From: Patescibacteria group bacterium
Lineage (GTDB): Bacteria; Patescibacteriota; JABMPQ01; JAQVVF01
Assembly (NCBI GenBank): GCA_041662665.1
Contig: JBAZSC010000003.1
Coordinates: forward strand, 76,333 to 140,332
DNA length: 64,000 nucleotides
Direction: 5' to 3'
In this document: in pieces, positions 3,331-28,198 of the stretch
How positions within the stretch are numbered: position 1 is the first letter of the stretch
How the letters are laid out: each line of letters opens with the position of its first letter
The notes under the pieces: model-generated
Databases searched by the model: none
Seen by the model: the letters and a program-made list of their open reading frames with translations, nothing else
What the model was told of the DNA's origin: nothing
Made by a program: the position numbers and the translations under genes

Positions 3331-3407
3331 CTTTTCTCTAATATTAAAAATTTTGTATTCCAAGATTTTTAATTCTCTAATCGGCTTTTCGAATGTTATC
3401 TTTAATA

Positions 3408-3431
3408 AAAACCCGTCGAGTGACGGGTTTT
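3408..3431 (+). terminator. Rho-independent terminator hairpin (aaaacccgtcgagtgacgggtttt)
   Basis: Inverted repeat plus T-run after the stop at 3330. Confidence 0.6.
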
Positions 3432-3509: not shown

Positions 3510-3582
3510 AGCCACTTCCCGGGATCGAACCGGGGACCTTTGCTTTACGAAAGCACTGCTCTACCAACTGAGCTAAAGTGGC
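3510..3582 (-). tRNA. tRNA-Thr (anticodon CGU)
   Basis: Reverse complement folds as a cloverleaf: acceptor GCCACTT/AAGTGGC, D-arm GCTC…GAGC, anticodon loop TTCGTAA, T-arm CCCGG-TTCGATC-CCGGG. Confidence 0.8.
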
Positions 3583-3584
3583 AT

Positions 3585-3655
3585 AGCGGGTAATGAGAAT
3601 CGAACTCACATATCTTGCTTGGGAAGCAAGCGCACTACCACTGTGCTATACTCGC
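3585..3655 (-). tRNA. tRNA-Gly (anticodon CCC)
   Basis: Reverse complement: D-arm GCAC…GTGC, anticodon stem CTTGC/GCAAG with loop TTCCCAA, T-loop TTCGATT, acceptor with one A-C mismatch. Confidence 0.75.
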
Positions 3656-3735
3656 TCATGATTCATTATTCTTAATTCATTATTCTTTAAGATTATACTT
3701 GATTTTTAAAATTTTGTAAATCATGCTAAAATGTA

Positions 3736-3811: not shown

Positions 3812-4894
3812 ATGTTGCAAAATAAAGACGTAACCAAACTTAACCGCTTACAAAGTGATAAAGAAGATGTTGTGACAATTTATTTGAATTGCGATCAAAG
3901 AAGATACAAGCCAGAAGAAATAGAAGAAAAATTAAAAGATTTATTGAAAATTGTTGGAGAAAAATTAGGTGCTGAAGAAACAAAGAAAATTGAAGAATGG
4001 ATTGATTTAAGATTAGATAAAAAAGTTAAAGGCATGGCATTTTATGCTAGTCCGTCTAAAAATTTTTGGTCGATTTATAAATTTCCTTGTCCAATTAAAA
4101 CAGGAGCTTATGTTGAAAAGAATGTTCATATCGAACAATTATTGCAAGTCTTGGATGAATTAGAAAGGTATTGTGTTGTAGTTTGTGACAAGGAAAAAGC
4201 AAAAATATTTACAGTTTTTTTGGGTGTCATTCAAGATTTTAGTTATATTTTTGATGAGTTTCCAGGAAAGCATGATCAAGGTGGATTAGCGCAACAAAAT
4301 CAGGCTTCGCATACTGAAGAACATGTTCGTCAGCATTTGAAAAAAATTAATGAACAATTATTTAAGTTCTGGAAAGAAAAAGGATTTGATAGATTAATTC
4401 TAGCTGGATCAAAAGAGGTCTTGCCGGAATTAAAAAAAGTTTTGCATACGGAATTAAAAAATAGAGTAGTCGGTGAATTTTTTACAGAATTATTTAAGCC
4501 TAACGAACATTTTTTGGAGCAGTCTTTAGTAGTTCAAGAAAAAGTAGAAAGACAGAATGAAAAAAAATTAGTTGATGAATTAAATAACAGCTTGAACGGT
4601 CAATTAGCAGTTGCTGGTTTGAAAAAAGTTTTAGATGCAATTCAAGAAAGAGATATAAAAGCTTTATTAGTGGATTCTAAATTAAGTACAACCGGCAAGA
4701 AATGTCCAAATTGTGATTTTTTGGGATTGGATGAAGTTGTTTGTCCTTATTGCAGTTTTAAAACTGAAGATGTGAAAGATGTTGTTGATGAATTAGTTCA
4801 AAAAGCATATAGCCATCGCGCGAAAATAGAGTTTGTTGAAAATAATGAAGTATTAGCGGGAATGGGTGGGATTGGAGCGATGCTACGGTTCTAG
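3812..4894 (+). CDS. Bacterial eRF1/Pelota-superfamily protein (baeRF1-like) with inserted zinc ribbon
   Basis: C-terminal 'LAGMGGIGAMLRF' matches the Pelota/eRF1 domain-3 ending (…GGIAAILRY); three-domain length of about 360 aa; CPNC…CPYC zinc-ribbon insert; 'HDQGG' in the central domain. Confidence 0.55.
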   Translation: MLQNKDVTKLNRLQSDKEDVVTIYLNCDQRRYKPEEIEEKLKDLLKIVGEKLGAEETKKIEEWIDLRLDKKVKGMAFYASPSKNFWSIYKFPCPIKTGAYVEKNVHIEQLLQVLDELERYCVVVCDKEKAKIFTVFLGVIQDFSYIFDEFPGKHDQGGLAQQNQASHTEEHVRQHLKKINEQLFKFWKEKGFDRLILAGSKEVLPELKKVLHTELKNRVVGEFFTELFKPNEHFLEQSLVVQEKVERQNEKKLVDELNNSLNGQLAVAGLKKVLDAIQERDIKALLVDSKLSTTGKKCPNCDFLGLDEVVCPYCSFKTEDVKDVVDELVQKAYSHRAKIEFVENNEVLAGMGGIGAMLRF

Positions 4895-7572: not shown

Positions 7573-9684
7573 ATGACAAAATTTAACAAAATTTTTATTT
7601 GGAGCGTTGTTTTTGTGTTAACAATTTTTGGCTTGGCTAATTTTAGCCAAGCTAGAACATGGACGCAAAGCGGGACAGATGGATTAGGAGATACAGCTAA
7701 TTGGAATTTCTATGGTTTTCAGACAATTGGCAATTCACTTTTTACGGGATCTTTGTATGTGGGTCCTGCTAATGGCGCTCAAGCTTTTACAACGTCAGAT
7801 GGATCAACTTGGGTTTCAGTTGATGCAACTGGTTTTGGAGATGGCAACAATTATTCTTATGGAGGCGGAAATACAACATTTAACAATAATGTTTATTTTT
7901 GTTTGAGAAATATTACAACTGGAGCAGAGGTTTGGTCAACATCAAATACTGGCGTTTTGTCTGCTTCACAAGTTAATGTGGATGGTTTTGGAGCTGGCAA
8001 TCAAAATGCTGATTGTTATTTCTTGAAAGAATATAAGGGTATTTTGTATGGCGGAACGGAAAATACAACTGCAGGAGGTCAAGTTTATGCTTATTCTAAT
8101 GGAACAACTTGGACACAAACAAATACTAATGGTTTTGGCAGTATTAATAACGATATTTTTTATTCAGGTGAGGTTTTTAAAAACTACTTATATGTTGGAA
8201 CACGCAATGCTACAACTGGCGGACAGATTTGGCGGACAGATGGAAGTACTTGGTCGCAGGTAACTGGCGATGCATTTGGAGTTGGCAATGCTAGTTATGG
8301 AATTATGACTCTGCAAACTTTTGGTAATTATCTTTATGCTGGTATTGCTAACAATGGCGGTGCGCAAATTTGGCGAACTAGCGATGGTGTTAACTGGACA
8401 AATACTGGTTTTAGCAGCACTTTTAGCTTGAGTATTCAAGGTATGTATGCAACTGACAATTTATTGTTTGCTGGGACCTCAAATCTTGGCAGTGGAGCAG
8501 GTGTTTTTGAAACAAGCGATGGTACAAATTGGATTCAAAATAATGTTGGAGGTTTTGGTACAAGCGGTATTATGGGCAATATTATAGTAAGGGGTATGGG
8601 GTTATTTGGCGATTATTTGTATGCTGGCGCATTTAAAGCTAATGGAGGTACAATTTGGAAAACCGATATAATTCCTCCGATTGTGACAGCTAGCCCAGAT
8701 AATAAAGCTTCTAGAAAAAAGATTAAAGTGACATTATCAAGCAATGACAGTTCAGGATCAATTTATTACACAACTGATGGTTCAATACCGACAACTGGAT
8801 CAAATTTGTATACTGGACAGATAACTTTTAAAAAGACTAAAATTTTAAAATTTATTGGTGTTGATACTGAAGGCAATGTGAGTTCAGTTCAAACGAAACA
8901 TTATGTTGTAACAAGCTATCCATATTTATATAATACTAACAAAGAATTGCGCGAGAAGAATGGGACAATAAAATTTTATAATATTTCAACTTCTAAATAT
9001 GGCAAGAAATTTAAGCCGTTTTCTTCTGGTTTGAAATATTTTACGGTTGCTGATCCAAATCAAGATAATAAGACAGAAATTATTGCAAATAATGGAAATG
9101 AAATTAAGTTTTATAATTCTAAAAGAAAGCTAAGATATACTTTGAAAAGTGCGAATGATTATTTAACATTTGGTGATATTAATAATAGCAAAAAAGAAAA
9201 AACTTTGATTGCAAAAGCTAAGACTTTAAAAATTTATAACAAGACAAGTTTAGAGAAAACATTTAATTTTTCAGAAAATATAAAAAGTATTGCAGTCGGC
9301 AGAGTATTGAAATATGATCAGCCTTTGATAATTGTTGGTTTTGATGATCAGATTAAATTATATAAATATAAAAATAAAAGTTTAGTTTTGAAAAAAACAA
9401 AGTCATTAAACTACAGTAAATTATTGGCTTATGATTTGGATACTAATGGAACTGATAACATTATTTATTCTAAAAACAAAAAAGTTTATGTATTAAATAA
9501 GAAGTTGAAGAAAAAGTTTTCTTTTAGCGCTGGCGGAAGTTTTTTAGCAGTAGCAGATGTCAATGATGACTATTTATTAGAAATTTTAGCAAGTACTGGA
9601 AAGAAATTAAAAACTTATTCAAATGAAGGAATTTTGTTGAATAGCAAAAAAGATAGCGGGAAATGGATTGGAGCAAGATTTTAA
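7573..9684 (+). CDS. Secreted modular repeat protein: signal peptide, Thr/Gly/Trp-rich beta-propeller-like repeats (…GGQIWRTxDGxxWTQ…GFG…), CHB_HEX_C-like domain, Lys-rich C-terminal region
   Basis: Signal peptide; iterated ~45-aa repeats; 'IYYTTDGSIPTTGSNLYTGQI…LKFIGVDTEGN' motif; basic C-terminal 300 aa. Confidence 0.65.
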   Translation: MTKFNKIFIWSVVFVLTIFGLANFSQARTWTQSGTDGLGDTANWNFYGFQTIGNSLFTGSLYVGPANGAQAFTTSDGSTWVSVDATGFGDGNNYSYGGGNTTFNNNVYFCLRNITTGAEVWSTSNTGVLSASQVNVDGFGAGNQNADCYFLKEYKGILYGGTENTTAGGQVYAYSNGTTWTQTNTNGFGSINNDIFYSGEVFKNYLYVGTRNATTGGQIWRTDGSTWSQVTGDAFGVGNASYGIMTLQTFGNYLYAGIANNGGAQIWRTSDGVNWTNTGFSSTFSLSIQGMYATDNLLFAGTSNLGSGAGVFETSDGTNWIQNNVGGFGTSGIMGNIIVRGMGLFGDYLYAGAFKANGGTIWKTDIIPPIVTASPDNKASRKKIKVTLSSNDSSGSIYYTTDGSIPTTGSNLYTGQITFKKTKILKFIGVDTEGNVSSVQTKHYVVTSYPYLYNTNKELREKNGTIKFYNISTSKYGKKFKPFSSGLKYFTVADPNQDNKTEIIANNGNEIKFYNSKRKLRYTLKSANDYLTFGDINNSKKEKTLIAKAKTLKIYNKTSLEKTFNFSENIKSIAVGRVLKYDQPLIIVGFDDQIKLYKYKNKSLVLKKTKSLNYSKLLAYDLDTNGTDNIIYSKNKKVYVLNKKLKKKFSFSAGGSFLAVADVNDDYLLEILASTGKKLKTYSNEGILLNSKKDSGKWIGARF

Positions 9685-9716
9685 GGAGTTATTAGTTTTT
9701 TGAGATTTATGAGAAT

Positions 9717-9741
9717 TAAAAGAGTACGAGAGTACTCTTTT
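9717..9741 (+). terminator. Terminator hairpin aaaagagtacgagagtactctttt
   Basis: Perfect 10-bp stem with flanking A/T runs after the stop at 9684. Confidence 0.55.
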
Positions 9742-9834
9742 AAAAATATTTAATTATATAATTGACAATAATGATTTAAAGATTTAAGATACTTTGAGAT
9801 GTTTTCCCCAGATTGGGAAGGAGAGGAGGGAGAA

Positions 9835-10845
9835 ATGACAGACAGAAAACAGGTAGTTCTTTCAGGAATTAGAGCGACAGGACAAATGCATTTGGGCAAT
9901 TACCTTGGAGCAATGCGTCATTTTGTGGAATTAAGCAGAGATCCTAGCAAGCGATGTTTTTTCTTTGTGGCTGATTTGCACACATTGACGACTTTGAAAG
10001 ATCGGCAACAAATGGCAAAGCATTTGCCAAATATCGTTTTGGATTATTTGGCTGCTGGAATTGATCCTAGGGTTGCAACTTTGTATGCTCAGTCATCTGT
10101 GCCAGAAATTTCCGAGCTTTTTTGGCTATTGTGCAATTTTATGCCAGTTGCTGATTTGTTGCTTTGTCCGTCTTACAAGGATAAGGCGTCCAAGAATCCT
10201 CAAATTGCTGGTTTGTTGAATTATCCAATTCTGATGGCTGCTGATATTTTGGCTCCCAGAGGCGAATTGATTCCTGTCGGCCATGATCAAATTCCGCACG
10301 TTGAAATGGCAAGACAGATTGCTCGTGATTTTAATCGAGAGGTTGAAGAAGAGCTTTTTGTAATTCCAGAACATTTGGGTGGCGAATCAATTACTGTGAA
10401 GGGGTTGCATGGTGAAGGAAAGATGGGTAAAAGTGAAAAGCCGGATTCAACTATTTTCTTGACTGATAGCTATGATATTGTTTGGGGTAAATTGCGGACA
10501 GCAACTACTGATCCAGATAGGAAAAGAAGAAATGATCCAGGAAATCCAGCAGTTTGCAATGTATTTACTTTGCACACACTTTTGTCTCCAGATGAGAAAT
10601 TCCGAGAAATGGCCGAAGGTTGTCGAACTGCTTCGATTGGATGCATTGATTGTAAGAAAGAATTGATGATTCATTTGTGGAAATTGTTGGCTGAATTTCA
10701 AGCAAATCGCCAGCGAATTTTGCAGAATGGAGGCATTGATTATGTTAGGAATGTTCTGATTGAAGGTGGAAAAAATGCAAGGTCTGTGATTCAGTTTACT
10801 GTGCAAAGAGCACAAGAATTGATGGGTGTAGCAACTTATCTTTGA
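9835..10845 (+). CDS. trpS: Tryptophanyl-tRNA synthetase
   Basis: Class-I aaRS motifs HLGNYLGA (HIGH-like) and KMGKS (KMSKS). Strong SD GGAGAGGAGGG upstream of ATG 9835. G+C visibly higher than flanking genes. Confidence 0.9.
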   Translation: MTDRKQVVLSGIRATGQMHLGNYLGAMRHFVELSRDPSKRCFFFVADLHTLTTLKDRQQMAKHLPNIVLDYLAAGIDPRVATLYAQSSVPEISELFWLLCNFMPVADLLLCPSYKDKASKNPQIAGLLNYPILMAADILAPRGELIPVGHDQIPHVEMARQIARDFNREVEEELFVIPEHLGGESITVKGLHGEGKMGKSEKPDSTIFLTDSYDIVWGKLRTATTDPDRKRRNDPGNPAVCNVFTLHTLLSPDEKFREMAEGCRTASIGCIDCKKELMIHLWKLLAEFQANRQRILQNGGIDYVRNVLIEGGKNARSVIQFTVQRAQELMGVATYL

Positions 10846-10857
10846 TCTTTTTTTAAA

Positions 10858-10884
10858 GCGTATACACGCTTTTTTTATTGACTA
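10858..10884 (+). terminator. Terminator hairpin (agcgtatacacgct + T7) fused to a TTGACT -35 box
   Basis: 'gcgtatacacgctttttttattgact'; the same terminator-TTTTTTTATTGACT arrangement recurs at 11957-11984. Confidence 0.6.
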
Positions 10885-10953
10885 AAAAAGCAGATAATAA
10901 TAGACTTAAATATAAAGTTGTACTTTGACAACCCGAAAAGGGAGGGAAGAGAA

Positions 10954-11622
10954 ATGCAAGAAGAAGCCGCGAAGTTTTATCAGCATTTGGAATATTTGAA
11001 CGTTTTTAAGCCTTATCTTGACGCGAAAGCATACAATGATGTTGTTAGTCAAGCATTAAGAAAAACTTTGGCTGATCCATTTTTTCATGGTAGAAGAATC
11101 AGAGTTTTGGATTGTGGAACTGGTACAGGAAGAGGATTGATTAGATTGATTAAAGATGGCTTTTTGAGGAATGCATATATTGAAGCTTTTGATGTAGACA
11201 GAGATTTGTTGATGGGTATGCCTCGCTTGTTTGAAGAGCATGCTGTTTTGAATGGTTGGTCATACAAGCCTTTAGATTGTAAGGACCCAGCTAATTTTCA
11301 GTTCAGTATTACTTGTGAAAAAGAAGGTATTGATATTGTAGTGCATGGTTTTGTTTGTTCTGTTTATGATATTGGGTCAGAAATACTGCTTGAGGAAGTG
11401 GATTTGGTAATTGGTCAGGCTTTTATTGAACATGTTAATTCTCAGCTTGCTTATGGCAGACTATTAGGATTGCTGAAAAGCGGTGGGTTTGTCTATTTTT
11501 CTATGAACTGTGATGGATGGTTTTGTTATACTCCTTGTCCTCGTGGTTCTGAAGATAGAGATACTAAAATTATGAATTTGTTTAATGATTTGGCAATGAA
11601 TGATCAGAACTATGGTAATTAA
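10954..11622 (+). CDS. Class I SAM-dependent methyltransferase
   Basis: Glycine-rich SAM motif VLDCGTGTGRG; strong SD AAAGGGAGGGAAG. Confidence 0.55.
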   Translation: MQEEAAKFYQHLEYLNVFKPYLDAKAYNDVVSQALRKTLADPFFHGRRIRVLDCGTGTGRGLIRLIKDGFLRNAYIEAFDVDRDLLMGMPRLFEEHAVLNGWSYKPLDCKDPANFQFSITCEKEGIDIVVHGFVCSVYDIGSEILLEEVDLVIGQAFIEHVNSQLAYGRLLGLLKSGGFVYFSMNCDGWFCYTPCPRGSEDRDTKIMNLFNDLAMNDQNYGN

Positions 11623-11664
11623 TCTGGTGCAATCTATGGTGGTAGAGCATTTTGCGGTCGAAAT

Positions 11665-11952
11665 TTGCCTTATGATTTTAAAAGAAGAGGTTTAAAAACT
11701 TTGGCTTATGGACCATCAGATTGGGTTGTAACTCCATATGATCAAGTAGATCAGGAATTGGGATTTTTGAGGCATACTTTGGCAGAAATAAAAGATATTT
11801 GTATTTCAGAAAAAGCATTGGAAATGAGGTCAAAGTGGAATGTTAGCGTTTCAGAAATTTTAGAATGGTATTTGGAAAAGTTTGCAGCAATTTCTGATAA
11901 AAGTATTGGTTTTACTTGCGTTCAGAAAGATATTTTAGGGAGGAAGATTTAG
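11665..11952 (+). other. ORF in the same frame as the upstream methyltransferase, separated from it by a single TAA (11620-11622); either a C-terminal continuation (pseudogene or recoding) or a separate small protein
   Basis: 10954 and 11665 are both in frame 1; the frame is open from 11623; there is no SD in front of ATG 11665. Confidence 0.3.
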
Positions 11953-12054
11953 TTCTTAGCGTGTGAATTGCACGCTTTTTTTATTGACTTGTTAAAATGA
12001 ATATACTAAATTAACTTAATGTTCTTTATTCCAACCAGAAAAGGAGGGAAGGAA

Positions 12055-12630
12055 ATGGGAGCTGTAAATAAAAATTTATTTGATGAAGCAGTTAGAAGAG
12101 CAAAATTGATTGCTCAAAATTGTTCTTCTGTTAATTTGATTTTTTTGGATCAATGGCGAAGATCAAGAGAAGAAGATAAATGGAGGTTGACATATTTAGG
12201 TGATGACATTGGTTGTTGTTCTAGTGATTGTTTAAATTGCCCTATCTTTTGGAGTTGTGGAGGAATGGATGATCCTTTTGATGAAAACAAACTTGTAACA
12301 ACTTTGGTCTTGGCAACGAAATCTGATTTACGAAATTATGATGGAAGACAAGTCTATCTTAATTGTAAATCGTTAGATCAATATGTTATTTCTTTTGTTA
12401 ATTGCTTTGTTGGAAGTTGTCATAATCGAGTAACAATGCTTGATGAATTAGATTATGTTGCGGGATTTAAAGTTGTTTATTCTCGAGACGAGATTGATTT
12501 AACAACTCTTGAAATGAGAATAAAGGAAAGAATTATAAAGGGATGTTTATTAAGATATTCAGAAAAAGAAAAAGAAATTTTTTCAGCTGCAGTGTTAGAG
12601 ATTGGATTTCCTAAATATTTTGTAATTTGA
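12055..12630 (+). CDS. Cys-rich hypothetical protein (CSSDCLNCPIFWSCGG…CFVGSCHN)
   Basis: Strong SD AAAAGGAGGGAAGG; own promoter (TTGACT) and terminator; no recognisable family. Confidence 0.45.
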   Translation: MGAVNKNLFDEAVRRAKLIAQNCSSVNLIFLDQWRRSREEDKWRLTYLGDDIGCCSSDCLNCPIFWSCGGMDDPFDENKLVTTLVLATKSDLRNYDGRQVYLNCKSLDQYVISFVNCFVGSCHNRVTMLDELDYVAGFKVVYSRDEIDLTTLEMRIKERIIKGCLLRYSEKEKEIFSAAVLEIGFPKYFVI

Positions 12631-12637
12631 ACATTGT

Positions 12638-12668
12638 GATCATACATGGATTGTATGATTTTTTTTAT
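12638..12668 (+). terminator. Terminator hairpin gatcatacatggattgtatgatc + T8
   Basis: Stem-loop plus T-run, followed by TTGACT(12677)…TATAAT(about 12703) promoter. Confidence 0.55.
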
Positions 12669-12711
12669 TTTCTCTTGACTTTAAAAATATTTTTGATAAT
12701 ATAATAAGTGA

Positions 12712-13093
12712 AACTTAAAACTTTAAAAATCGTTGACCTGGAAAAAGTAAGTTAGTTATTTTTAAAAGTCTGCTTTCGCTAAAGCTACAGCAGACGAAGC
12801 GAATAAGGGATAGTGAGAGCCTTATAAAAATACTAGCTGAAAATGGATCCAGCGAGATGATAAGTTAAATACTTATCCGGTTGCCTCCGTAACCATAGGC
12901 TAACTGATATCTTGAATCCACCTTTGCTAAAGCTTCGGTGGACAAAGGAGTCAGTAAGTGATCAGTGTTTTTGCACTGATAAACAAGGTGGTAACACGGG
13001 AAGACTTCTCGTCCTTGAATACTTTTTAGAAGTATTTTAGGATGAGAAGTTTTTTGTTATGATCGATCTTTCACAACGCAAGGAGGAGAGAAG
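12712..13093 (+). promoter_or_regulatory. About 380-nt structured 5' leader of the RPH-like gene, containing two copies of the CCGCC-hairpin element and several other stem-loops
   Basis: Promoter TTGACT-N17/18-TATAAT at 12677-12708. Hairpins at 12769-12801, 12858-12882 and 12916-12950; a weak terminator-like hairpin at 13018-13040; SD AAGGAGGAG at 13080. Confidence 0.45.
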
Positions 13094-15619
13094 ATGAAAG
13101 TTCTATACCTGAGAAATCTGATGGGTTTGGAAGTGTCGCAGATTGGTGGCAAAGCATTTAATTTGGGCAAGTTAATTATGGCTGGATTTAATGTACCAAG
13201 TAGAGGTTTTGTGTTAGATGTGGATGTTTTGGACAGTTGGCCAAGTGGACGTGAAGAAGTAGCAGATTTTTTTGTAGATTATTTTGGTGGACAAGTCGTA
13301 GCTGTGAGAAGTTCAGCAGTAGCAGAAGATTCTGGATCAGCTTCTTTTGCTGGTCAGTACAAAACTACCTTGCATGTTAGGACTAGGGAAGAATTTTTGC
13401 GAGCAGTTGATGATTTCGTTGCTGGTTTGCTTGATGATGGCATTCAAGCATATCAGACAGTAGTTAAGCAGAAAGATTCAGGTCGACGGCAGGCAGCTTT
13501 GATTGTTCAGGAAATGGTTGAAGCAGAAATTGCTGGTGTGCTTTTTACGGTTAACCCACTCGATGGTTTGGACGAGATGATGATTACAGCAGCTTCTGGT
13601 ATTGGTGAGGCATTGGTATCTGGTCAGGTGACTGGAGATACATATGTTGTTGATAGAGATGGGATGCTCAAAAAGATGGTTATCGGCGGTGTAAAAAAAG
13701 ATTTGCGAGATGGTGTTGGCTTGATGACAAATAGAGATGTTGCTGAGAGAATTTTGGATGATAGTTTGCTGATGTATTTAGTAAAAATTGGCAAGCGGGT
13801 TGAAGAACTATTCCAATGTCCGCAAGATATCGAATGGGCAATTGTTGGTTCGCAGATTTTTTTGCTGCAAGCTCGACCAATTACGGCAATGTCTACTTTG
13901 GGTTTGCAGCGTCAAAAAGTTATTGATGATCTTGGAAATTCTTTTGAAAAAGAGAGAGCGAGATTGGAAGAGTTAGGTGTTGTATTGGCAACTGATTGTT
14001 TTTCTGATCAAAATATTGCTGAGCTTTTGACTCGTCATCCTACGCCAATGGCTTTTGGAGCATTCTGTTATATTTTTGCTGATGGCGAAGCTGGAATCCG
14101 GCTTGGTCGCAATCAAATGGGTTATGAGATTGGGTCAGAACTTGATCATGGTTTTTTCAGATTAGTTGGTGGTCAACCTCGTTGTAGTATTGTTCATGAT
14201 GCTTTTACTTATCGGATTGCTGGAATTCCGTTGTCGGATTATGCGATTTTGGTGAGATATTATTTGGAGAAAATTGCTGAAGATTCTAAAATGGCAAATT
14301 ATCCAGAAGTAGTGCTCTATAAGCAAGATCCGAGTTTGGAATTTCTGACAGAATTGTTTGGAGCAGAAAAAGCACAGTTCTATCGAGTGGCTTTTGATCG
14401 ATTTTTTACTGGATTAGCAGTGTTGATTGAGCAAACGGTGTTGGAGATGAAGACATTCGAAGATGATTTTAGGGCTTATATTGCAAGAGAGAAAGTCAAG
14501 ATGGAAAGTTTGGACATGAATCTTCAAGCTAATATTGCTCTATGCATGGAAATGTTTGATCATCTGCGAACTGTTGCTTGTGTGATGTTTGTTAAAGTTG
14601 CACGTTTGGGATTTTTTGCTTATGCACGACTTCGAGAAAAAATGGCATTGCATTATGGTAAAGAAAAGGGCGAGCAGTTGTTAGCAACATTAACTAGTGG
14701 ATTGGATAATGATCCGTCTTTGCATTTCAATGTTTGTTTGGCACAGTATCGTGATGGTCAAATCACTTTTTCTGAACTTTTGGAAAGATATGGTCATTTG
14801 GGTGCGAATGAACTAGAGGTTTCAGGATTGCGTTATCATGAAGATTCAAGTTTGTTGGAGCGTTACGCAGAACAGATTGCTGGAGATCCTCGTGTTGAAT
14901 TGGCACGCAGAAAGGCAGAATGTGATAAGGTTCGTGCAACTGTGGCAACGGAATTGGGAGAAGAAGTGGCTAGCTGGGTTGAGGTAGCGCGACAGTATTT
15001 GGCTGGTAGAGAATTAATCAAATATCTTTATTTGATGGAATATGATTTAGTTCGGCAAATGTTACTTAGAATCGAAAAGATTTTACATTGGGAAGATGAT
15101 TTGGTCTTCTGTCTTTATCCAGGAGAGATTCCAATGTTGCAATATGATAGCGAACGTATCCATAGAAAAGCAGTTGCGCGTTTGCAGCGTAGGCGTGAGC
15201 AAATGAATATCTATGTTCCGCCAGTAATTTTCTCTGATGATTTGGAGAGGATCGGTCAATCTCCATATCAAGCATCTGATAAGATTTTGACTGGCTTTGG
15301 AGTGACAGATCAGGTGGTGACTGGAGAGGTAGTTAAAGTGGCTGATCCAAGGGATAGAAAACAAATTGCCAAGCTTTTTGCAGGTTGTGTTCTAGTGACA
15401 ATGACAACTGATCCTTCTTGGGCCCCATTGATTGCAGCGATTGGTAGTAACGGTGGTTTGGTGACTGAGATTGGAGGTCCTTTGGCGCATGGGGCAATTG
15501 TAGCTAGAGAATTGGGAATTGGCGCTGTCTTGGATGTTACTGGAGCAATGCAGATTTTGCAGGATGGAATGAGAGTAGAGGTTAATGGTCCTTTGGGAGT
15601 TGTGAAGATTTTGGATTGA
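13094..15619 (+). CDS. PEP-utilising-enzyme family protein with PPDK-N ATP-grasp domain and C-terminal swivelling His domain (rifampin-phosphotransferase / PEP-synthase-like)
   Basis: N-terminus 'QIGGKAFNLGKL…GFNVPSRGFVL'; C-terminus 'LVTEIGGPLAHGAIVARELGIGAVL' (PEP-utilisers mobile-domain His); no PEP-binding TIM barrel; about 840 aa like the Rph family. Confidence 0.7.
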   Translation: MKVLYLRNLMGLEVSQIGGKAFNLGKLIMAGFNVPSRGFVLDVDVLDSWPSGREEVADFFVDYFGGQVVAVRSSAVAEDSGSASFAGQYKTTLHVRTREEFLRAVDDFVAGLLDDGIQAYQTVVKQKDSGRRQAALIVQEMVEAEIAGVLFTVNPLDGLDEMMITAASGIGEALVSGQVTGDTYVVDRDGMLKKMVIGGVKKDLRDGVGLMTNRDVAERILDDSLLMYLVKIGKRVEELFQCPQDIEWAIVGSQIFLLQARPITAMSTLGLQRQKVIDDLGNSFEKERARLEELGVVLATDCFSDQNIAELLTRHPTPMAFGAFCYIFADGEAGIRLGRNQMGYEIGSELDHGFFRLVGGQPRCSIVHDAFTYRIAGIPLSDYAILVRYYLEKIAEDSKMANYPEVVLYKQDPSLEFLTELFGAEKAQFYRVAFDRFFTGLAVLIEQTVLEMKTFEDDFRAYIAREKVKMESLDMNLQANIALCMEMFDHLRTVACVMFVKVARLGFFAYARLREKMALHYGKEKGEQLLATLTSGLDNDPSLHFNVCLAQYRDGQITFSELLERYGHLGANELEVSGLRYHEDSSLLERYAEQIAGDPRVELARRKAECDKVRATVATELGEEVASWVEVARQYLAGRELIKYLYLMEYDLVRQMLLRIEKILHWEDDLVFCLYPGEIPMLQYDSERIHRKAVARLQRRREQMNIYVPPVIFSDDLERIGQSPYQASDKILTGFGVTDQVVTGEVVKVADPRDRKQIAKLFAGCVLVTMTTDPSWAPLIAAIGSNGGLVTEIGGPLAHGAIVARELGIGAVLDVTGAMQILQDGMRVEVNGPLGVVKILD

Positions 15620-15703
15620 TCTTTTTTGCGAGCAAGCAGATTTATCTGCTTTCTTTTTCTGTTTTGTTTTATTAAGATAATACAAAAGAGAAGAGGAAAT
15701 ATT

Positions 15704-16243
15704 ATGAAGAAAAAAATAATTTTATTTGTTTGTTCTGGAAACATGTTTCGGTCACCAATTGCTGAGGCATATTTTGATATGCTTTTAAAAAAGAATAACG
15801 ATCATAAATTTTTTGTTGCAAAATCAGCAGGAATTCAAGGTACTGGTGGAAAGATAAAATTAAAAGGACAAAATCCTCCAAAATTTAAAAATTTAAGAAA
15901 TTATGAATTAGAATGGAAGCATTCTGAGCCATTGTTAAAGTCGGCAAATATTGATATTTCTAAACATAATTTTGTTGCTATTAATAAGAAAATTATTTTA
16001 GAATCAAGTTTGATTATTGCAATGAGTAAAGATATATATCAAACAAGAACTAACTCTTTATTAAATCAATTTTTAGAAAACAAAGACAAGATTTTTTTAT
16101 TAAGCAATATAATAAACAAAAAAAGAGGAATACCTGATGTTTTTGGAAAAAGAAAAAGGAGAATGTATAAAGTTGCAATTGGACAAATACAAAATTATTT
16201 GGATTCTGGTTATAAGAAAATTATTAAATTAGCTAAAAACTAA
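15704..16243 (+). CDS. Low-molecular-weight protein-tyrosine-phosphatase / ArsC-like (LMWPc) protein
   Basis: P-loop CSGNMFRS (C-X5-R) at the N-terminus after ATG 15704. Confidence 0.65.
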   Translation: MKKKIILFVCSGNMFRSPIAEAYFDMLLKKNNDHKFFVAKSAGIQGTGGKIKLKGQNPPKFKNLRNYELEWKHSEPLLKSANIDISKHNFVAINKKIILESSLIIAMSKDIYQTRTNSLLNQFLENKDKIFLLSNIINKKRGIPDVFGKRKRRMYKVAIGQIQNYLDSGYKKIIKLAKN

Positions 16244-16295
16244 TAATATTTTGTTAAAAAACTGAACTTATTAGTTCGGTTTTTTTGTACAAAAA

Positions 16296-16320
16296 AAGAC
16301 CTCTCAGAGAGAAGGTCTAA
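16296..16320 (-). terminator. Terminator of tRNA-Trp (gaccttctctctgagaggtc + T7 on the minus strand)
   Basis: Hairpin plus T-run immediately 3' of the tRNA on the minus strand; convergent with the plus-strand terminator at 16244-16280. Confidence 0.5.
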
Positions 16321-16325
16321 AGGGG

Positions 16326-16398
16326 CGGGCCAGGAGGGATTCGAACCCACAGCATTCGGTTTTGGAGACCGACGCTCTACCATTAGAGCTACTGGCCC
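16326..16398 (-). tRNA. tRNA-Trp (anticodon CCA)
   Basis: Reverse-complement cloverleaf: acceptor GGGCCAG/CTGGCCC, D-arm GCTC-TAATGGTA-GAGC, anticodon stem TCGGT/ACCGA with loop CTCCAAA, T-loop TTCGAAT. Confidence 0.8.
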
Positions 16399-16482
16399 GC
16401 AAGGTGCAAGAAAAGTAAAGAACGTGTATTTATGATGTCATCATATATCTTTGATTTTGCTTTGTCAAATTTGACTTGTGGA

Positions 16483-17907
16483 TTACTGGTGAGCTTTTTT
16501 CCATTCTTGGTCAGCTAGGTCAAGATCAGAAACAAAACGTTTGATGAAAGGAATAGTGTGGGGCATAATACAAATCTTGTAGACAATCAATGGACAACTG
16601 AGTGGATCTAACGTATTTTTTGGAAAATAATCAGAACGAAGATGATAAGGCTGAAGAATTCCATGTTCTAGGATTTGTTTGGGGATTTCTCCACCTTCAA
16701 TGTCAATGACCATTGGAGCAAAGTTGACATGAGGTGAATACGGCATAATTTTGATCCAATTTAGATTAGCATTTTCCTTAATCAATCTAACTAGCTCATT
16801 TCTTGTTTCAAGACATTGTTGGACATATTTTCGTTGTCCATTCTGTCCTTCTGCCTGAAAGAGATATCGAGCTAAAACAGGAGAGAGGCAAGATCGTGAT
16901 CCAGAAACAGTGTCATGATCATGACCTCGGACGTATTGAACACGTCGAGCAACAAGTCTCATCAAATCTTTGCGACAGAGAAAAACTCCAGCAGGATAAG
17001 GTAGTCTTCCCATTTTGTCGCCGTCAATGGTTACTGACATGACATTAGGAACATTGAATCCAATTTTAGGTGCATTAATGTTGCAAAAAGGAATTGTAAA
17101 ACCGCCAAAGCTAGCATCAACATGCAAATAAAATCGGACATCTTGAGTAGTGTTGCGATCAATGAAATTACTGATCGCTTCGATTGGATCAATTGAGCCA
17201 AGTACAGTTGTTCCAGCTGTTGCAATAATCAGAAATCTTCTGAAGCCTTCATGGATTTTTTGGTTAACAATTTCTTGTAATGATCCAATATCCATTTCGC
17301 CTCGTTCGTTCATGCCAACAAGATTGAGTCCGCAACCGCGATGATCTGGTGTAAACAGATGATCTTTGCTACAGTGAACGCAATGTAACCATTGCGGTTC
17401 GCCAAAATCGAGCATTTCTAAAGCTTGAGAAATAGAGAAGTGCTGCAAAGGAGTTGCTAATGCGACAATTCCGCGATTATTAGGATCTGGACATTGGCGC
17501 AAATATTGTCTGCCGATCCAGAGTCCTTCAATATTGGCTTCAGTACCACCTCCGCAAAAATATCCTTCGGTTGTTGCTGGTGTGCCACCGATAACTGATG
17601 CAAGCATCCAGATTGCTTCAGCTTCCATTCTTTGAACAACTTCAAAACCGCCTTCACCATCTTGGAATTTCAAATTTCCATTATCGTCAATTTCAATGTG
17701 GGTATGACTGCCAATAGCATTGATTTGTTTAGCGAGCAGACTTTTTGCACGACCAAGTACGCCTTTTGGCAGAGTTGTACCAGGATAACAAAATGGCGGA
17801 ATCTCTTGTTCATATGGTGAAGAAATGCTGGCTACGATTTTGGCAATACCTTGTTGATCATGTCCATTTTCTGGCCATTCCCAATCTTGTCTTTTGTTGA
17901 CGTTCAT
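16483..17907 (-). CDS. PLP-dependent group II amino-acid decarboxylase (glutamate/tyrosine decarboxylase-like)
   Basis: 'LHVDASFGGF' (compare GAD 'HVDAASGGF'), 'GTTVLGSIDPI', and Lys in 'IDGDKMG'; SD AAGGGAGGGAAAA upstream of ATG at 17907. Confidence 0.65.
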   Translation of the reverse strand: MNVNKRQDWEWPENGHDQQGIAKIVASISSPYEQEIPPFCYPGTTLPKGVLGRAKSLLAKQINAIGSHTHIEIDDNGNLKFQDGEGGFEVVQRMEAEAIWMLASVIGGTPATTEGYFCGGGTEANIEGLWIGRQYLRQCPDPNNRGIVALATPLQHFSISQALEMLDFGEPQWLHCVHCSKDHLFTPDHRGCGLNLVGMNERGEMDIGSLQEIVNQKIHEGFRRFLIIATAGTTVLGSIDPIEAISNFIDRNTTQDVRFYLHVDASFGGFTIPFCNINAPKIGFNVPNVMSVTIDGDKMGRLPYPAGVFLCRKDLMRLVARRVQYVRGHDHDTVSGSRSCLSPVLARYLFQAEGQNGQRKYVQQCLETRNELVRLIKENANLNWIKIMPYSPHVNFAPMVIDIEGGEIPKQILEHGILQPYHLRSDYFPKNTLDPLSCPLIVYKICIMPHTIPFIKRFVSDLDLADQEWKKAHQ

Positions 17908-18078
17908 TTTCTTTTTTCCCTCCCTTGTTGTGAAGGTGCTTCTGCGAAGTTTATAACAATAATTTGATTTTGGCAAGGGCAGGATTTATTTAAATGATAA
18001 TTTTGTTTTTGTCAAGATGTTCATAACTGCATTGACAAATATATTTAAGACGCTATTATTAGATAAACACTTAAATTT

Positions 18079-19014
18079 ATGATTAAGGTAGAAAATCTTA
18101 CAAAGTCATACGCAAATTTTAAAGCACTAGATGGTGTTTCTTTCGAGGTGCAAAAGGGCGAAATTATCGGTTTTCTAGGTCCTAATGGCGCTGGAAAGAC
18201 GACAACAATGAGGATTTTGACAGGTTTTTTTCCTCCAACATCAGGAAAAGTCGAAATCGATGGTTTTGATATTTTTAATGATTCGATTGAAGTTCGAAAG
18301 AGAATCGGCTATTTGCCAGAAAATACTCCATTATATCAAGACATGGAAGTTTATGCATTTTTACGATATATGGCAGAATTGAAGGATGTTGAGCCAGAAA
18401 AGAAAAATCAGCATATCAAGAATATTATGAAGCGTTGCGGAATTGAGCACATGAAAAATGAGATTATTTCTCGTCTTTCAAAAGGCTATAAACAAAGAGT
18501 TGGATTAGCCCAAGCTTTAATTGGTGATCCAAAAGTATTAATTTTGGATGAGCCAACTATTGGTTTGGATCCAAAACAGATTATTGAAATTAGGAATTTG
18601 ATTAAAGAATTAGGCAAAGAAAAAACAATTATTTTATCAACTCATATTTTACCAGAAGTAGCTGTGACTTGTACTAGAGTTATAATTATTAATGAAGGAA
18701 AGATTGTTGCTGAAGATACACCAGATAATTTGGAGAATAAAGTTTCAGGTGTTGCAAAAGTAATTGTAACTGTTCGAGGCGGATCTCCTGATTTGATAAA
18801 ATCAAGATTGGAAGGCGTACAGGGTGTCAGCAATGTAACTGTTTTGAAAAATCATGCTGGATTTACTGATTTAAGTATTCAATCTGAAAAAGATGTTGAT
18901 GTCAGAGATAAAGTTTCTTCAATTATAGTTCAAAATAATTGGGGATTGATTGAAATGCATCGCGAAACTTTAGGATTAGAGGAAATTTTCTTAAAACTTA
19001 CTAAAAAGGGTTAA
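18079..19014 (+). CDS. ABC transporter ATP-binding protein (GldA-like, ABC-2 subfamily)
   Basis: Walker A GPNGAGKTT, signature LSKGYKQRV, Walker B LILDEPT. Confidence 0.85.
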   Translation: MIKVENLTKSYANFKALDGVSFEVQKGEIIGFLGPNGAGKTTTMRILTGFFPPTSGKVEIDGFDIFNDSIEVRKRIGYLPENTPLYQDMEVYAFLRYMAELKDVEPEKKNQHIKNIMKRCGIEHMKNEIISRLSKGYKQRVGLAQALIGDPKVLILDEPTIGLDPKQIIEIRNLIKELGKEKTIILSTHILPEVAVTCTRVIIINEGKIVAEDTPDNLENKVSGVAKVIVTVRGGSPDLIKSRLEGVQGVSNVTVLKNHAGFTDLSIQSEKDVDVRDKVSSIIVQNNWGLIEMHRETLGLEEIFLKLTKKG

Positions 19015-22987: not shown

Positions 22988-23962
22988 TTAGATTCCTGTA
23001 GAGTTTAGACGAAGGTTCAATATTGGTACAGTTGGTCCAGCTGTTATTCTGATCAACCTGATATCTTTTTTGCGGTTTGAGAAAACATCGCCATCAATAA
23101 TGATATCTTCGTCAGTTTTAAGAATCAATTCTTTGGCATTGCCATTGATGACTTTTCGAGAAATAAGATCTCTTTTTACTTCTTTGCCCCAGAGATATCG
23201 AAATACATGGCTTAGAAGTTCATAGGCATTGAGAGAAAAAATACCAAGAAGAAATTGACCTTTTTGGATTCTTCCAGACAATGGTCTGAATGTTAGGACA
23301 ACATCTTTAATATTAGCAGCGATGATTCCAGCAAATTTTGTTCTTTCAAATTGCTGATTGTCATATGTTACTTTAGCTTGAGCATAATGGTAAATTCTGA
23401 ATCTGCTAAAAACAGTTCCAAGAATACAATGAAAGATTAAGCAAATCGCTGCCCAAAGACCCTTGCTTGTTTTTTCGTAATATTTCAAATAATCAACAAC
23501 AACTCCAATTGAAAAGAAAAATCCATAATAGATTTTTCCAGCATCATCAATTTGAATTAGCTCTTTTTGATAAATTGGATAATCTGGCTGAGATCTGATT
23601 TTTAAAACAGTTGCAAGATTTTCATGCGGATCTTTTTTGAAACCGAGAGCTTTGGCAACCATGGACATTGATCCGCCACCGATATGAGCGATAACTGGTA
23701 ATGCTTGCGTGCCATAAATTTTGAGAGTTTCTTGAATGATGTGGCGCAAAGCTCCATCTCCACCACAACAACAGATATAACGAACTTTTGCTTTTTTTAA
23801 CTTGCGAATAATACTTCTGACTTGTTCAGGACTTTGAGTAATAAAAACTTGGACATTTTCAACACTTGAGGCAACTTTTTTTATTCGATTGATGTATTTT
23901 AGTCCTTTTCTTCTAATCAGCATTGCATTGAGATTGATGATGACAGCAACTGGTGGTAGCAT
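22988..23962 (-). CDS. Diacylglycerol/lipid kinase catalytic-domain protein (YegS/BmrU family)
   Basis: DAGK_cat motif 'CCCGGDGALRHI'. Confidence 0.65.
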   Translation of the reverse strand: MLPPVAVIINLNAMLIRRKGLKYINRIKKVASSVENVQVFITQSPEQVRSIIRKLKKAKVRYICCCGGDGALRHIIQETLKIYGTQALPVIAHIGGGSMSMVAKALGFKKDPHENLATVLKIRSQPDYPIYQKELIQIDDAGKIYYGFFFSIGVVVDYLKYYEKTSKGLWAAICLIFHCILGTVFSRFRIYHYAQAKVTYDNQQFERTKFAGIIAANIKDVVLTFRPLSGRIQKGQFLLGIFSLNAYELLSHVFRYLWGKEVKRDLISRKVINGNAKELILKTDEDIIIDGDVFSNRKKDIRLIRITAGPTVPILNLRLNSTGI

Positions 23963-26647: not shown

Positions 26648-26759
26648 AAATAAAAAAATTTAGTTTTAAAATAGCTACTTTTTTGGCTTGACGAAATTAT
26701 TGATTATGTTAAACTTGAAACTTGCTGCCCCAAAGGACAAAGGGGCTTGGAGGAAAAGG

Positions 26760-27389
26760 ATGAGAGGGACGAGAATGAGTGCTTTGTGTTTGATGCTGGT
26801 TCTTTGTGCATGTTCTGCAAATCCATTTGAAGGCAGGCATAATGTAAATTCAGGTAATGGCAATATTGATGGCAAGAAGGCGATCACAACAGACATGCAA
26901 TTTTCTGTTGGCGAGGTTGATCCGTTTGATGAAGGAAATTTGGAAGTTTTGGATATGTCTGGTCGTGAGATTTTGCGTGTTGATGCTGTTGCTAATGACA
27001 CAAAACGACAGTTGAAGGCACTGTCTTGGTCTAAGGATTCTTCCAGATTTGCTGCTCTTTATAGTGATTATCAAGGAACCGAAGCCATTGTACACTGTAC
27101 TAATGATGCTTCTTATCCTTGTGGAAGAGCTGAATTCAAGAACATCAAGGAAACTAATTTTCACTATTTGACATTTAGCAATAATTTGGGATTTGTCTTG
27201 ATTTCGACTGATGGAAGTGCTGTTGAAGAGTTGCCAATTATTCCAATTTCTCCCGCTGTAATTGTTTCGCCTCCTATTGTTAATGAAGTAGAACTTGATG
27301 GTGGGACTGTAGTCAGTGATTCTGAAATTGTTCCACAGGAAATGGATGGATTAGTAATTGAAGTAGATTCTTCAACCTTGAAAAATTAA
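26760..27389 (+). CDS. Secreted or lipoprotein hypothetical protein
   Basis: SD GGAGG 6 nt upstream of ATG 26760; signal-like 'MSALCLMLVLCACSANP'. Confidence 0.45.
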   Translation: MRGTRMSALCLMLVLCACSANPFEGRHNVNSGNGNIDGKKAITTDMQFSVGEVDPFDEGNLEVLDMSGREILRVDAVANDTKRQLKALSWSKDSSRFAALYSDYQGTEAIVHCTNDASYPCGRAEFKNIKETNFHYLTFSNNLGFVLISTDGSAVEELPIIPISPAVIVSPPIVNEVELDGGTVVSDSEIVPQEMDGLVIEVDSSTLKN

Positions 27390-27992: not shown

Positions 27993-28121
27993 ATGAAACT
28001 GATTTGGAACATTGTTTGTTTTCCATTTCGGTCTTTGAAATTTTGGTTGGATTTTTTTATTTCATTGTATAAAATTGCGAGAATTAGCAAAGAATTGGCT
28101 ATTCTAGTAATAGAAATTTGA
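27993..28121 (+). CDS. Small ORF (42 aa, hydrophobic: MKLIWNIVCFPFRSLKFWLDFFISLYKIARISKELAILVIEI) with strong SD
   Basis: ACGGGAGGAGAGAAAC-ATG; not in the ORF track (<60 aa); sits inside an otherwise ORF-free 0.8-kb region. Confidence 0.3.
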   Translation: MKLIWNIVCFPFRSLKFWLDFFISLYKIARISKELAILVIEI

Positions 28122-28198
28122 GATTATGTTTTTCATCTTGATTAATTCAAAATGTTGATGTATGCTTTGATGTTTACCTCAAGCAAGAGGAGGGGAGA

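Follow-up and report, generated by a model that had tools for sequence, protein, structure and literature searches.

Within a 64-kb stretch of a contig from a Patescibacteria group bacterium (JBAZSC010000003.1; the whole stretch is termed the window below), a block of six genes at positions 9760-17980 probably represents a tryptophan-centred cluster typical of the ultra-small bacteria of the Candidate Phyla Radiation (CPR; Patescibacteria), in which a dikinase gene controlled by a T-box riboswitch and an adjoining phosphatase gene would form a module that responds to tryptophan starvation. This interpretation derives from comparison of the sequence with homologous loci in other CPR genomes, and it is the control logic of the module that is well supported. 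An initial annotation of this DNA had placed all six genes at coordinates that agree with the open reading frames (ORFs) and family matches recovered here (Table 1). It had also proposed that the block is related to tryptophan, which is borne out by a tryptophan-specific T-box, a gene for tryptophanyl-tRNA synthetase (trpS; TrpRS), and a tRNA-Trp gene.

The region of approximately 380 nt upstream of the dikinase gene had been described as a structured leader. It is structured, and it can now be given an identity. A full-length match to the Rfam T-box model RF00230 (model positions 1-219) extends over 12724-13019 with a score of 99.8 bits, relative to a gathering score of 93 (E 9e-21). The specifier UGG is located at 12844-12846 and is followed by A, within the segment GAA-AA-UGG-A (12837-12847) that lies just before the closing helix, and a T-box bulge, UGGU, is located at 12989-12992. 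The antiterminator is canonical (-10 kcal/mol; 7-nt bulge UGGUAAC), and its 3' strand is reused by a terminator helix at approximately 12999-13052 (-33.7 kcal/mol, z -7.2) that is followed by a U run. When isolated, the 3' region folds as the antiterminator, and the addition of downstream sequence shifts the fold to the terminator. The tRNA-Trp gene located 3.3 kb downstream matches the leader at both contacts, with anticodon CCA opposite the UGG specifier and discriminator base G73 opposite the UGGU bulge; in the TBDB database, U:G pairing opposite G73 is found in 46% of Trp T-boxes (PMC7778990). Collectively, these features identify the leader as a predicted Trp T-box, from which we infer tRNA-dependent read-through into the dikinase gene.

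Our survey of related loci comprised 29 CPR loci containing the dikinase, 26 of which could be evaluated (three had no upstream sequence). A Trp sensor was identified at each of the 26 evaluable loci. T-boxes with a UGG specifier were the most common type (18 loci), and these were evenly divided between leaders with a long Stem I (9 loci) and leaders with a short Stem I (9 loci: L003, L004, L006, L011, L018, L020, L021, L030, and L035). In 16 loci, the T-box core GGUGGUACCGCG precedes the dikinase start by 100-330 nt, as it also does in L065, the locus of the closest relative of the window. In every leader of the long-Stem-I class, UGG occupies the 3' end of the specifier loop, in the form GAA-N0-2-UGG with A or C as the next base, and in the short-Stem-I class UGG is found within a conserved GG(G/A)UUGGG after a small hairpin. 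All 18 T-box loci have a UGGU or UGGC bulge, the former counted in 12 leaders and the latter in 5, and G73 is present in all five of the linked tRNA-Trp genes. An alignment of eight long-Stem-I leaders revealed compensatory changes in 31 of 48 consensus pairs, including both the lower and the upper helices that flank the specifier loop, with UGG invariant; a MAFFT alignment of only a pair of leaders was too poor at the 5' end for model building.

Rfam T-box scores among these leaders ranged from 99.8 bits in the window through 99.1 (L005), 97 (L065), 91 (L049), and 87 (L040) to 50 (L011), 44 (L006), and 38 (L003). The last three are the short-Stem-I leaders that were scored; in all nine leaders of this class the region from Stem II to the T-box is intact. 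Scores of 38-50 bits imply that standard annotation would miss such leaders. Actinobacterial ileS T-boxes have an ultrashort Stem I. The nine CPR leaders resemble that type in their short Stem I, in which UGG is placed in a small 3' bulge, and they differ in keeping an intrinsic terminator, so their control looks transcriptional. A further short-Stem-I T-box was observed in L020 (approximately 3050-3420), where GGGUUCGGG replaces the GGGUUGGGC of the Trp leaders, placing UCG or UUC in the specifier register; it has a UGGC bulge and precedes a gene for a 214-aa protein without a Pfam match.

Two further types of Trp sensor were identified upstream of the dikinase. A gene of the TrpR family (PF01371, 79.7 bits) lies directly upstream in seven loci, together with palindromes such as TTGTACTAGTACAA, and these TrpR homologs score just under the cut-off of TIGR01321 (58.5 versus 67.25). 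One of the seven, L018, is the single TrpR locus that also has a T-box, which precedes a small operon comprising a zinc-ribbon ORF, the TrpR gene, and then the phosphatase and dikinase genes. In L010 and L012, short leader peptides with Trp codons (W-S-W, W-W) were identified: MKNESITLNIWSWGLQ, MKFKAFQNSVFNWSWTL, MNYLTLKQSNSFGWRALLLCKVQC, and MKYTSPYKLNNSTWWALHSRKVLG. These leader ORFs precede both a gene for an Asp/Glu-type racemase and the dikinase gene (L010: 8752-8890 and 9589-9760; L012: 8915-9060 and 9763-9900), and each is followed by hairpins and a terminator. The hairpin whose 5' arm contains the Trp codons competes with the downstream terminator, in an arrangement of 1:2, 2:3, and 3:4-type hairpins. 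From their predicted folds, these leaders look like tandem attenuators of the classical kind in CPR.

The individual elements of this control have well-characterized counterparts. Trp T-boxes of Firmicutes, which are located upstream of, for example, trpS, trp operons, the rtpA-ycbK operon, and the trpX transporter gene, share with the leader described here a Stem I whose UGG specifier precedes a purine, Stem II and IIA/B, a UGGU bulge fitting G73, and a competing terminator (PMC7778990). The leader differs in its host, a CPR bacterium, and in its target, which is no aminoacyl-tRNA synthetase, biosynthetic, or transporter gene but that of a dikinase of the rifampin phosphotransferase (RPH) type. 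Likewise, elements similar to those of trp control in E. coli (TrpR and trpL attenuation) precede the dikinase in other CPR loci, but there they govern the dikinase-phosphatase pair (and the racemase) rather than tryptophan biosynthesis. That other CPR lineages place the pair under a TrpR-type repressor or a Trp-codon attenuator suggests that the pair is a response to tryptophan shortage.

The dikinase comprises an N-terminal ATP-grasp domain (PPDK_N), a central helical substrate domain, and a C-terminal swivelling His domain. The swivel domain (PF00391, 58 bits) includes TEIGGPLAH799, in which H799 is invariant in 21 sequences and which fits the T/SxxGGxxxH definition of the phospho-histidine motif (PMC12167813). 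The central helical domain takes the place of the phosphoenolpyruvate (PEP)/pyruvate TIM barrel, and the scores against all curated equivalogs (PEP synthase, RPH, PigC, and RedH) are far below cut-off, among them 227 bits versus 999 and 155 versus 1700 for the RPH models NF041857 and NF000283, respectively, and 221 versus 1300 for PigC. The absence of the barrel and these low scores together indicate that the enzyme belongs to a distinct subfamily of predicted small-molecule dikinases. Characterized members of the superfamily phosphorylate hydroxyl or phenolic groups while converting ATP to AMP and Pi (PMC12167813).

Comparison with characterized enzymes places the dikinase nearest to RPH in architecture. 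A profile of 21 dikinase homologs matches Listeria RPH (E 3e-102) across the ATP-grasp domain as well as the C-terminal third, and the identity to that enzyme (5HV1/5FBS) is 25%, with no alignment by sequence over profile positions 253-526, which make up the initial part of the central domain. Strong conservation of the central domain extends to distant CPR lineages, and it can be aligned with the rifampin-binding domain of RPH. The dikinase of the block is distinguished from RPH by its Trp regulation and its pairing with a phosphatase. Prodigiosin ligases PigC and RedH work by activating a carbonyl oxygen. To our knowledge, neither these two enzymes nor phenylphosphate synthase PpsAB, CreHI, or HpeHI are Trp-regulated. 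All five are of the same dikinase superfamily, the latter three phosphorylating aromatic hydroxyls (PMC12167813), and they are two-component enzymes or function in catabolic or pigment pathways. The ATP-grasp domain of HpeI is 39% identical to the block dikinase over the aligned core.

A separate dikinase clade, 30-33% identical, was observed in metagenome-assembled genomes (MAGs) of Proteobacteria, Methylomirabilota, and Acidobacteriota (L024-L060), where the neighbors, as judged by reading the sequence, are two to three paralogous U32 'peptidase'-like genes, the most frequent ones, and aminotransferase-, SDR-, and FAH-family-like genes. This clade may belong to an aromatic-compound pathway. 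The T-box core motif was not found directly upstream of the dikinases of the Proteobacteria/Methylomirabilota clade, and the clade was not used for inferring function.

The gene that follows the dikinase encodes a low-molecular-weight (LMW) phosphatase. The label LMW-PTP/ArsC-like had been attached to it, the first half of which holds (PF01451). Its P-loop, VCSGNMFRS, fits CX5R(S/T) and contributes the only Cys of the protein; without the extra Cys pair of thioredoxin-coupled ArsC, the protein is not expected to be an ArsC-type reductase. Across the surveyed loci, the phosphatase downstream of the dikinase is of the His_Phos_1 family in 18 loci and is an LMW-PTP in 8. Both types are found in L018 and L066, and in the latter the LMW-PTP is fused to the dikinase (P0084). 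Other neighbors include trpS within 10 kb in 9 loci (tblastn adds a trpS fragment at the end of L050), tRNA-Trp and a decarboxylase in 5 loci each, and an EamA transporter in 3. In 5 loci, a gene fusion that joins a chorismate-mutase-like domain (CM_2, borderline score) to a class I S-adenosylmethionine (SAM) methyltransferase lies between trpS and the T-box (L004, 7947-9242, with homologs in L007, L020, L021, and L030). A PepT-like M20 peptidase, AstE/AspA deacylases (L006 and L016), and an amino-acid racemase are found in or beside the dikinase unit; NUDIX genes are present in L009 and L023 and an S9 peptidase in L016. In the course of the survey, we also observed a group I intron inside the 16S rRNA gene of a Kaiserbacteria MAG (L020, 370-731), a fragment of a 23S rRNA gene approximately 1.4 kb from a trpS-decarboxylase-dikinase cluster (L040, 1-1230), and a LOOT RNA (L017, 1970-2095).

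In the mechanism that we propose, the leader would be transcribed from its own promoter. Uncharged tRNA-Trp would pair through its CCA anticodon with the UGG specifier and through its free 3' end (G73-CCA) with the UGGU bulge, and this pairing would stabilize the antiterminator and permit read-through past the -34 kcal/mol terminator into the dikinase gene. Charged tRNA-Trp would be unable to stabilize the antiterminator, and transcription would stop. By analogy to its family, the dikinase would transfer the beta-phosphate of ATP to His799 of the swivelling domain and from there to the oxygen of a hydroxyl or enol group on a substrate that the central domain binds, with AMP, Pi, and the phospho-substrate as products. 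The substrate would be small and probably aromatic or indolic, and the phosphatase, again judging from its family, would act on the phospho-product or on a later intermediate.

CPR bacteria are presumably tryptophan auxotrophs. The most plausible function of the module, though of low certainty, would be to scavenge or salvage either tryptophan itself or a precursor that is indolic or aromatic, a theme that the peptidase, deacylase, racemase, and transporter neighbors would fit. We tentatively put forward a more specific proposal, doubtful as it is, in which the pair would constitute an unrecognized enzymatic route that raises the supply of Trp or Trp-tRNA in auxotrophic CPR, either by activating an oxygen of an indolic or aromatic precursor or conjugate or, more radically, as part of a tRNA-Trp-linked pathway with trpS, tRNA-Trp, and the pyridoxal phosphate (PLP) enzyme of the block.

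Several observations weigh against a tryptophan-supply module. The dikinase is 61% identical to that of L065, in comparison to 85-96% for its neighbors, a degree of divergence not normally expected of an enzyme with a housekeeping role in salvage. On paper, phosphorylation by the kinase and dephosphorylation by the phosphatase amount to a futile cycle, which suggests that the model lacks a step. Any activity of the decarboxylase on Trp would deplete tryptophan instead of providing it. A weak hairpin at 15634-15651, between the dikinase and phosphatase genes, makes their co-transcription and co-regulation uncertain in this genome. Lastly, the surveyed loci were found via the dikinase itself, so the neighbor frequencies describe dikinase-containing genomes only.

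The alternative that survives best concerns the composition and translation signals of the block, which might be a lineage-wide property of two gene classes, with the block being native DNA of the second class. The window as a whole has approximately 32% G+C, a strong positive GC skew, and nearly all of its genes on the forward strand. The block had been considered visibly richer in G+C, at 40-45% relative to 30%. It is richer, and it is compositionally distinct in both G+C and G+C at the third codon position (GC3), but the difference amounts to 37.3% versus 31.6% for the rest of the window and is patchy between genes: trpS, the dikinase gene, and the decarboxylase gene have approximately 40.5% G+C, the methyltransferase gene 36%, the Cys-rich gene 30%, and the LMW phosphatase gene 24%. 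The block is nonetheless the richest 8.2-kb stretch in the 64 kb, the maximum elsewhere being 33.8%. Much of the excess lies at codon position 1 and thus reflects amino-acid composition, as expected if the block is native; GC3 of the block genes is also higher (0.26-0.32 versus approximately 0.21).

Shine-Dalgarno (SD) sites also divide the genes of the window. All six block genes have the very strong SD sites that the initial annotation ascribed to them, with duplex energies of -9.8 to -17.5 kcal/mol (the strongest in front of trpS), yet such sites are not exclusive to the block. The strong-SD class (-9.5 kcal/mol or lower) comprises 13 of 44 window genes, seven of them beyond the block (starts at 22183, 28199, 29030, and 47676; minus strand at 22988-23962, 49824-50069, and 57698-58039). 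The remaining 31 genes, at -6.1 kcal/mol or weaker, are essentially without an SD site and have an A/T-rich leader. Strong-SD genes usually have their own promoter and terminator, and each of the four minus-strand protein genes of the window is SD-led. One could propose on this basis that the A/T-rich, SD-less genes are a leading-strand backbone and that the SD-led genes are separately transcribed. The same two-class split was observed in the relatives L070 and L071 (SecA 84% and 89% identical), where a syntenic SD-led gene of 77-81 aa is located between MurG-type (Glyco_transf_28) and MurC-type (Mur ligase) genes. Since the pattern is lineage-wide and includes syntenic conserved genes, it is by itself no evidence of recent transfer. 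Against a purely native block stand the higher GC3 of the strong-SD class (0.258 versus 0.207 for other genes, p = 9e-4) and the absence of the dikinase, among the matches listed, from the large contigs of the closest relatives. We regard native second-class DNA as quite possible, if on balance not favored, and it is compatible with the functional model of a T-box-controlled dikinase.

A second alternative is that the dikinase phosphorylates and inactivates a Trp antimetabolite or an inhibitor of TrpRS, with the T-box sensing the uncharged tRNA-Trp that accumulates when TrpRS is blocked. The RPH architecture, the presence of antibiotic kinases in the family (PMC12167813), the close linkage to trpS, and the patchy, accessory, and fast-diverging nature of the gene (the 61% identity noted above) would all agree with such a function. 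A role in metabolite biosynthesis or antibiotic inactivation had been suggested for the block at the outset; nothing that was tested favors it, and the regulation indicates that the dikinase would be made when tryptophan or charged tRNA-Trp is short. Characterized TrpR family members respond to free tryptophan, and under the TrpR-type control of seven loci a Trp analog would be expected to repress the dikinase rather than to induce it. A dedicated phosphatase in the same operon would undo inactivation, and even distant CPR lineages show high conservation of the central domain. Indolmycin and chuangxinmycin, both inhibitors of TrpRS, have no obvious hydroxyl to phosphorylate. On these grounds, inactivation of such a compound appears improbable.

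The reading with which the initial annotation ended is a third alternative: a horizontally acquired island with tRNA-Trp as its integration site, comprising a second trpS of the resistance type and enzymes that make or inactivate a (tryptophan-related) antibiotic. Auxiliary inhibitor-resistant TrpRS genes do reside amid modifying enzymes in the indolmycin and chuangxinmycin clusters, as trpS does in the block, and the distinct G+C and SD usage and a dikinase from the family that contains RPH could be taken in the same sense. The strong-SD genes outside the block and at syntenic positions in relatives speak against it, as does the score of 227 bits versus 999 for the RPH equivalog. The tRNA-Trp gene, thought to mark the end of the block, is internal (16323-16399, minus strand, between the LMW phosphatase and decarboxylase genes) and is independently transcribed from its own promoter to its own terminator. 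No repeat of the 3' part of tRNA-Trp that might represent an att site was detected in 9000-19000, and no integrase or other mobility gene is present among the block ORFs, which together with the internal tRNA leave an integration site without support. PADLOC returned nothing relevant. A reading of the block as a defense system was set aside, PADLOC giving only a weak methyltransferase-fold match.

The relatives of the encoded proteins bear on the same question. SecA of the window has relatives at 89%, 84%, 74%, and 69% identity, the first three from 'Patescibacteria group' MAGs, followed at approximately 60% by Falkowbacteria, Magasanikbacteria, and Uhrbacteria. A TrpRS of Firmicute or Actinobacterial resistance type had been suspected; its best relatives are instead CPR TrpRS (50-57% identity), from the same neighborhood as those of SecA. 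Among the top 120 TrpRS matches, almost all that are named are from CPR or unclassified-bacterium MAGs (Portnoybacteria, Falkowbacteria, Parcubacteria group; 48-57% identity), and one is labeled Planctomycetota. Unlike the enzymes of the indolmycin and chuangxinmycin clusters, then, the block TrpRS is nearest to ordinary CPR TrpRS, and the block has no biosynthetic core genes. Relatives of the dikinase are CPR proteins at 37-44% identity (Kerfeldbacteria, Buchananbacteria, Falkowbacteria, Magasanikbacteria, Wildermuthbacteria, Kaiserbacteria, and others). Among the matches listed, identity falls from 88% to 57% or less for TrpRS and from 61% to 44% or less for the dikinase, and the large contigs (0.55-1.05 Mb) with the closest SecA relatives are not among the contigs of the listed dikinase or TrpRS matches.

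The block does behave as accessory DNA, as had been supposed, in that the dikinase module is patchy and the TrpRS list drops steeply relative to the SecA list. A one-off acquisition is not what was found, given that the same cluster lies beside the same ABC operon in L065 and that its core recurs across many CPR lineages. In L065, identities are 87.5% for trpS, 85% for an intact methyltransferase, 63% for the Cys-rich protein, 61% for the dikinase, 90% for the LMW-PTP, and 88% for the decarboxylase. That locus also has the T-box (97 bits) and tRNA-Trp, is flanked by the same ABC gene (96%), and contains one further gene, for a PepT-like M20 peptidase; the order of the Cys-rich and methyltransferase genes is swapped. 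Divergence of the dikinase and the Cys-rich protein from L065 is spread evenly along the length of each. Apart from one fragment that is identical, a metagenome scan with the flanking gene of 484 aa recovered only two loci, both distant (ABC 49% identical) and both without block genes in the approximately 3 kb upstream. Its patchiness among relatives and its distinct composition suggest that the module probably moves between CPR genomes, and trpS may be a xenolog or a second copy. An antibiotic island integrated at tRNA-Trp is, in contrast, very unlikely.

NPr is charged by a swivel domain of the Enzyme I type. Least likely of all is a stringent-response-like device, either an ATP-driven regulatory phosphorelay or an ATP-to-AMP sink, that slows growth when tRNA-Trp is uncharged and in which the dikinase and phosphatase would act on a protein or on the dikinase's own phospho-histidine: both phosphatase families include protein phosphatases (LMW-PTP on phospho-Tyr and phospho-Arg), SixA of the His_Phos_1 family offers a precedent in dephosphorylating the phosphocarrier NPr (PMC7948535), and the P0084 fusion recalls bifunctional regulatory enzymes, but characterized enzymes of full RPH architecture act on small molecules (PMC12167813), the central domain, large and conserved, can be aligned to the part of RPH that binds rifampin, and no conserved candidate target protein is found nearby in the surveyed loci.

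The features of the block are listed in Table 1. As had been noted, a terminator hairpin is followed within approximately 10 nt by a TTGAC(T/A) -35 box in front of trpS, the methyltransferase gene, the Cys-rich gene, and the T-box leader. A 19-nt junction of terminator tail and -35 box, CACGCTTTTTTTATTGACT, is identical at 10865-10883 and 11971-11989. The DNA analyzed here is present in identical form in two other assemblies.

Table 1. Features of the six-gene block and its control signals (positions in the window)
Feature	Position	Strand	Remarks
trpS promoter-like site TTGACA-17-TAAGAT	9762-9790	+	10/12 matches; just past the terminator hairpin of the upstream gene
trpS, tryptophan--tRNA ligase, 336 aa	9835-10845	+	TIGR00233, 262 bits versus cut-off 176.75; PF00579 class I W/Y catalytic domain
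Terminator hairpin (10855-10872) fused to promoter TTGACT-17-TAGACT	10855-10906	+	
SAM-methyltransferase-like gene, 332 codons	10954-11952	+	interrupted by in-frame TAA at 11620-11622
Terminator hairpin and promoter TTGACT-17-TAAATT of the Cys-rich gene	11958-12012	+	
Cys-rich protein, 191 aa	12055-12630	+	small uncharacterized family
T-box leader promoter TTGACT-16-TAATAT with extended TG	12675-12702	+	directly past terminator hairpin 12640-12667
T-box riboswitch specific for tRNA-Trp	12724-13058	+	RF00230
ATP-dependent dikinase of RPH architecture, 841 aa	13094-15619	+	PPDK_N and PEP-utilizers
Weak terminator-like hairpin between dikinase and phosphatase genes	15634-15651	+	
LMW phosphatase, 179 aa	15704-16243	+	PF01451, 45.7 bits versus 23.2
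tRNA-Trp(CCA) (16323-16399) with own promoter TTGACA-17-TATGAT and terminator	16297-16468	-	
Group II PLP-dependent amino-acid decarboxylase, 474 aa	16483-17907	-	PF00282

The best matches of the TrpRS in the PDB are 2EL7 and then 2G36, the TrpRS of Thermotoga maritima. The protein has the motif C-x21-C-x6-C-x2-C (encoded at 10556-10657), and the Thermotoga maritima enzyme binds a 4Fe-4S cluster via such a Cys motif; this suggests that the block encodes a putative Fe-S TrpRS. The trpS gene itself has no T-box upstream, and no second trpS is present elsewhere in the 64-kb window, which covers only part of the genome. The tRNA-Trp gene does not encode the CCA 3' end.

The methyltransferase gene had been given as 10954-11622. 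Those coordinates are correct for the first segment, which has a weak match to Methyltransf_23 that is below the gathering score, but past a single TAA the reading frame resumes into an ORF at 11665-11952. In L065, GAA (Glu) is found at the position of the TAA, and the gene encodes an intact methyltransferase of 331 aa to which both parts in the window are 84-85% identical. The TAA is identical in L001 and L002 and is thus present in three assemblies. That the downstream part is still 84% identical to the L065 protein points to a recent nonsense mutation or a read-through site, so that the gene is apparently a recent pseudogene, a split gene, or a site of read-through. The window methyltransferase was also considered as a homolog of the CM_2-methyltransferase fusion of other loci and has no significant similarity to it. 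In the family of the Cys-rich protein (68 cluster representatives), CxxxCxxC is nearly invariant and N-C-K is invariant, and the family profile has no match in the PDB. The decarboxylase scores below the cut-offs of the MfnA and histidine decarboxylase models, its nearest solved structures are serine decarboxylase and MfnA, and its homologs adjoin trpS in L005, L016, and L040.

Elsewhere in the window, a bacterial archaeo-eukaryotic release factor family 10 (baeRF) protein is encoded at 3812-4894, adjoining genes for tRNA-Thr and tRNA-Gly (3510-3656). The region 26700-29000 has a low coding density and contains several signals that resemble promoters and terminators, along with GC-rich hairpins and some small ORFs that are SD-led (e.g., 27995-28120, and 28199-28606, a predicted membrane protein); no Rfam family match was found in this region.

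T-boxes, TrpR, attenuation, and RPH-type dikinases are each known. What appears to be new is their combination as a Trp-regulated dikinase-phosphatase module in CPR, along with a T-box variant with a reduced Stem I. We found no description in the literature of a T-box combined with Patescibacteria or CPR, rifampin phosphotransferase, or PEP synthase, in a search that lay outside most subscription-journal papers. The convergence of three unrelated Trp sensors on one enzyme pair is the type of comparative evidence that earlier revealed missing genes of amino-acid metabolism. Here, the sensors point to a large, well-conserved enzyme without an assigned substrate, within a radiation whose members are believed to rely on partners for their amino acid supply. 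These observations widen the range of T-box control, which now takes in CPR bacteria and target genes of a new class, and they warn that the labels 'PEP synthase' or rifampin-resistance gene, as applied in metagenomes, are unsuitable for this dikinase family. If the pair does constitute a route of tryptophan supply, it would be the first case of an RPH-family enzyme with a part in amino-acid homeostasis, and one that came independently under the control of T-boxes, TrpR, and leader peptides.

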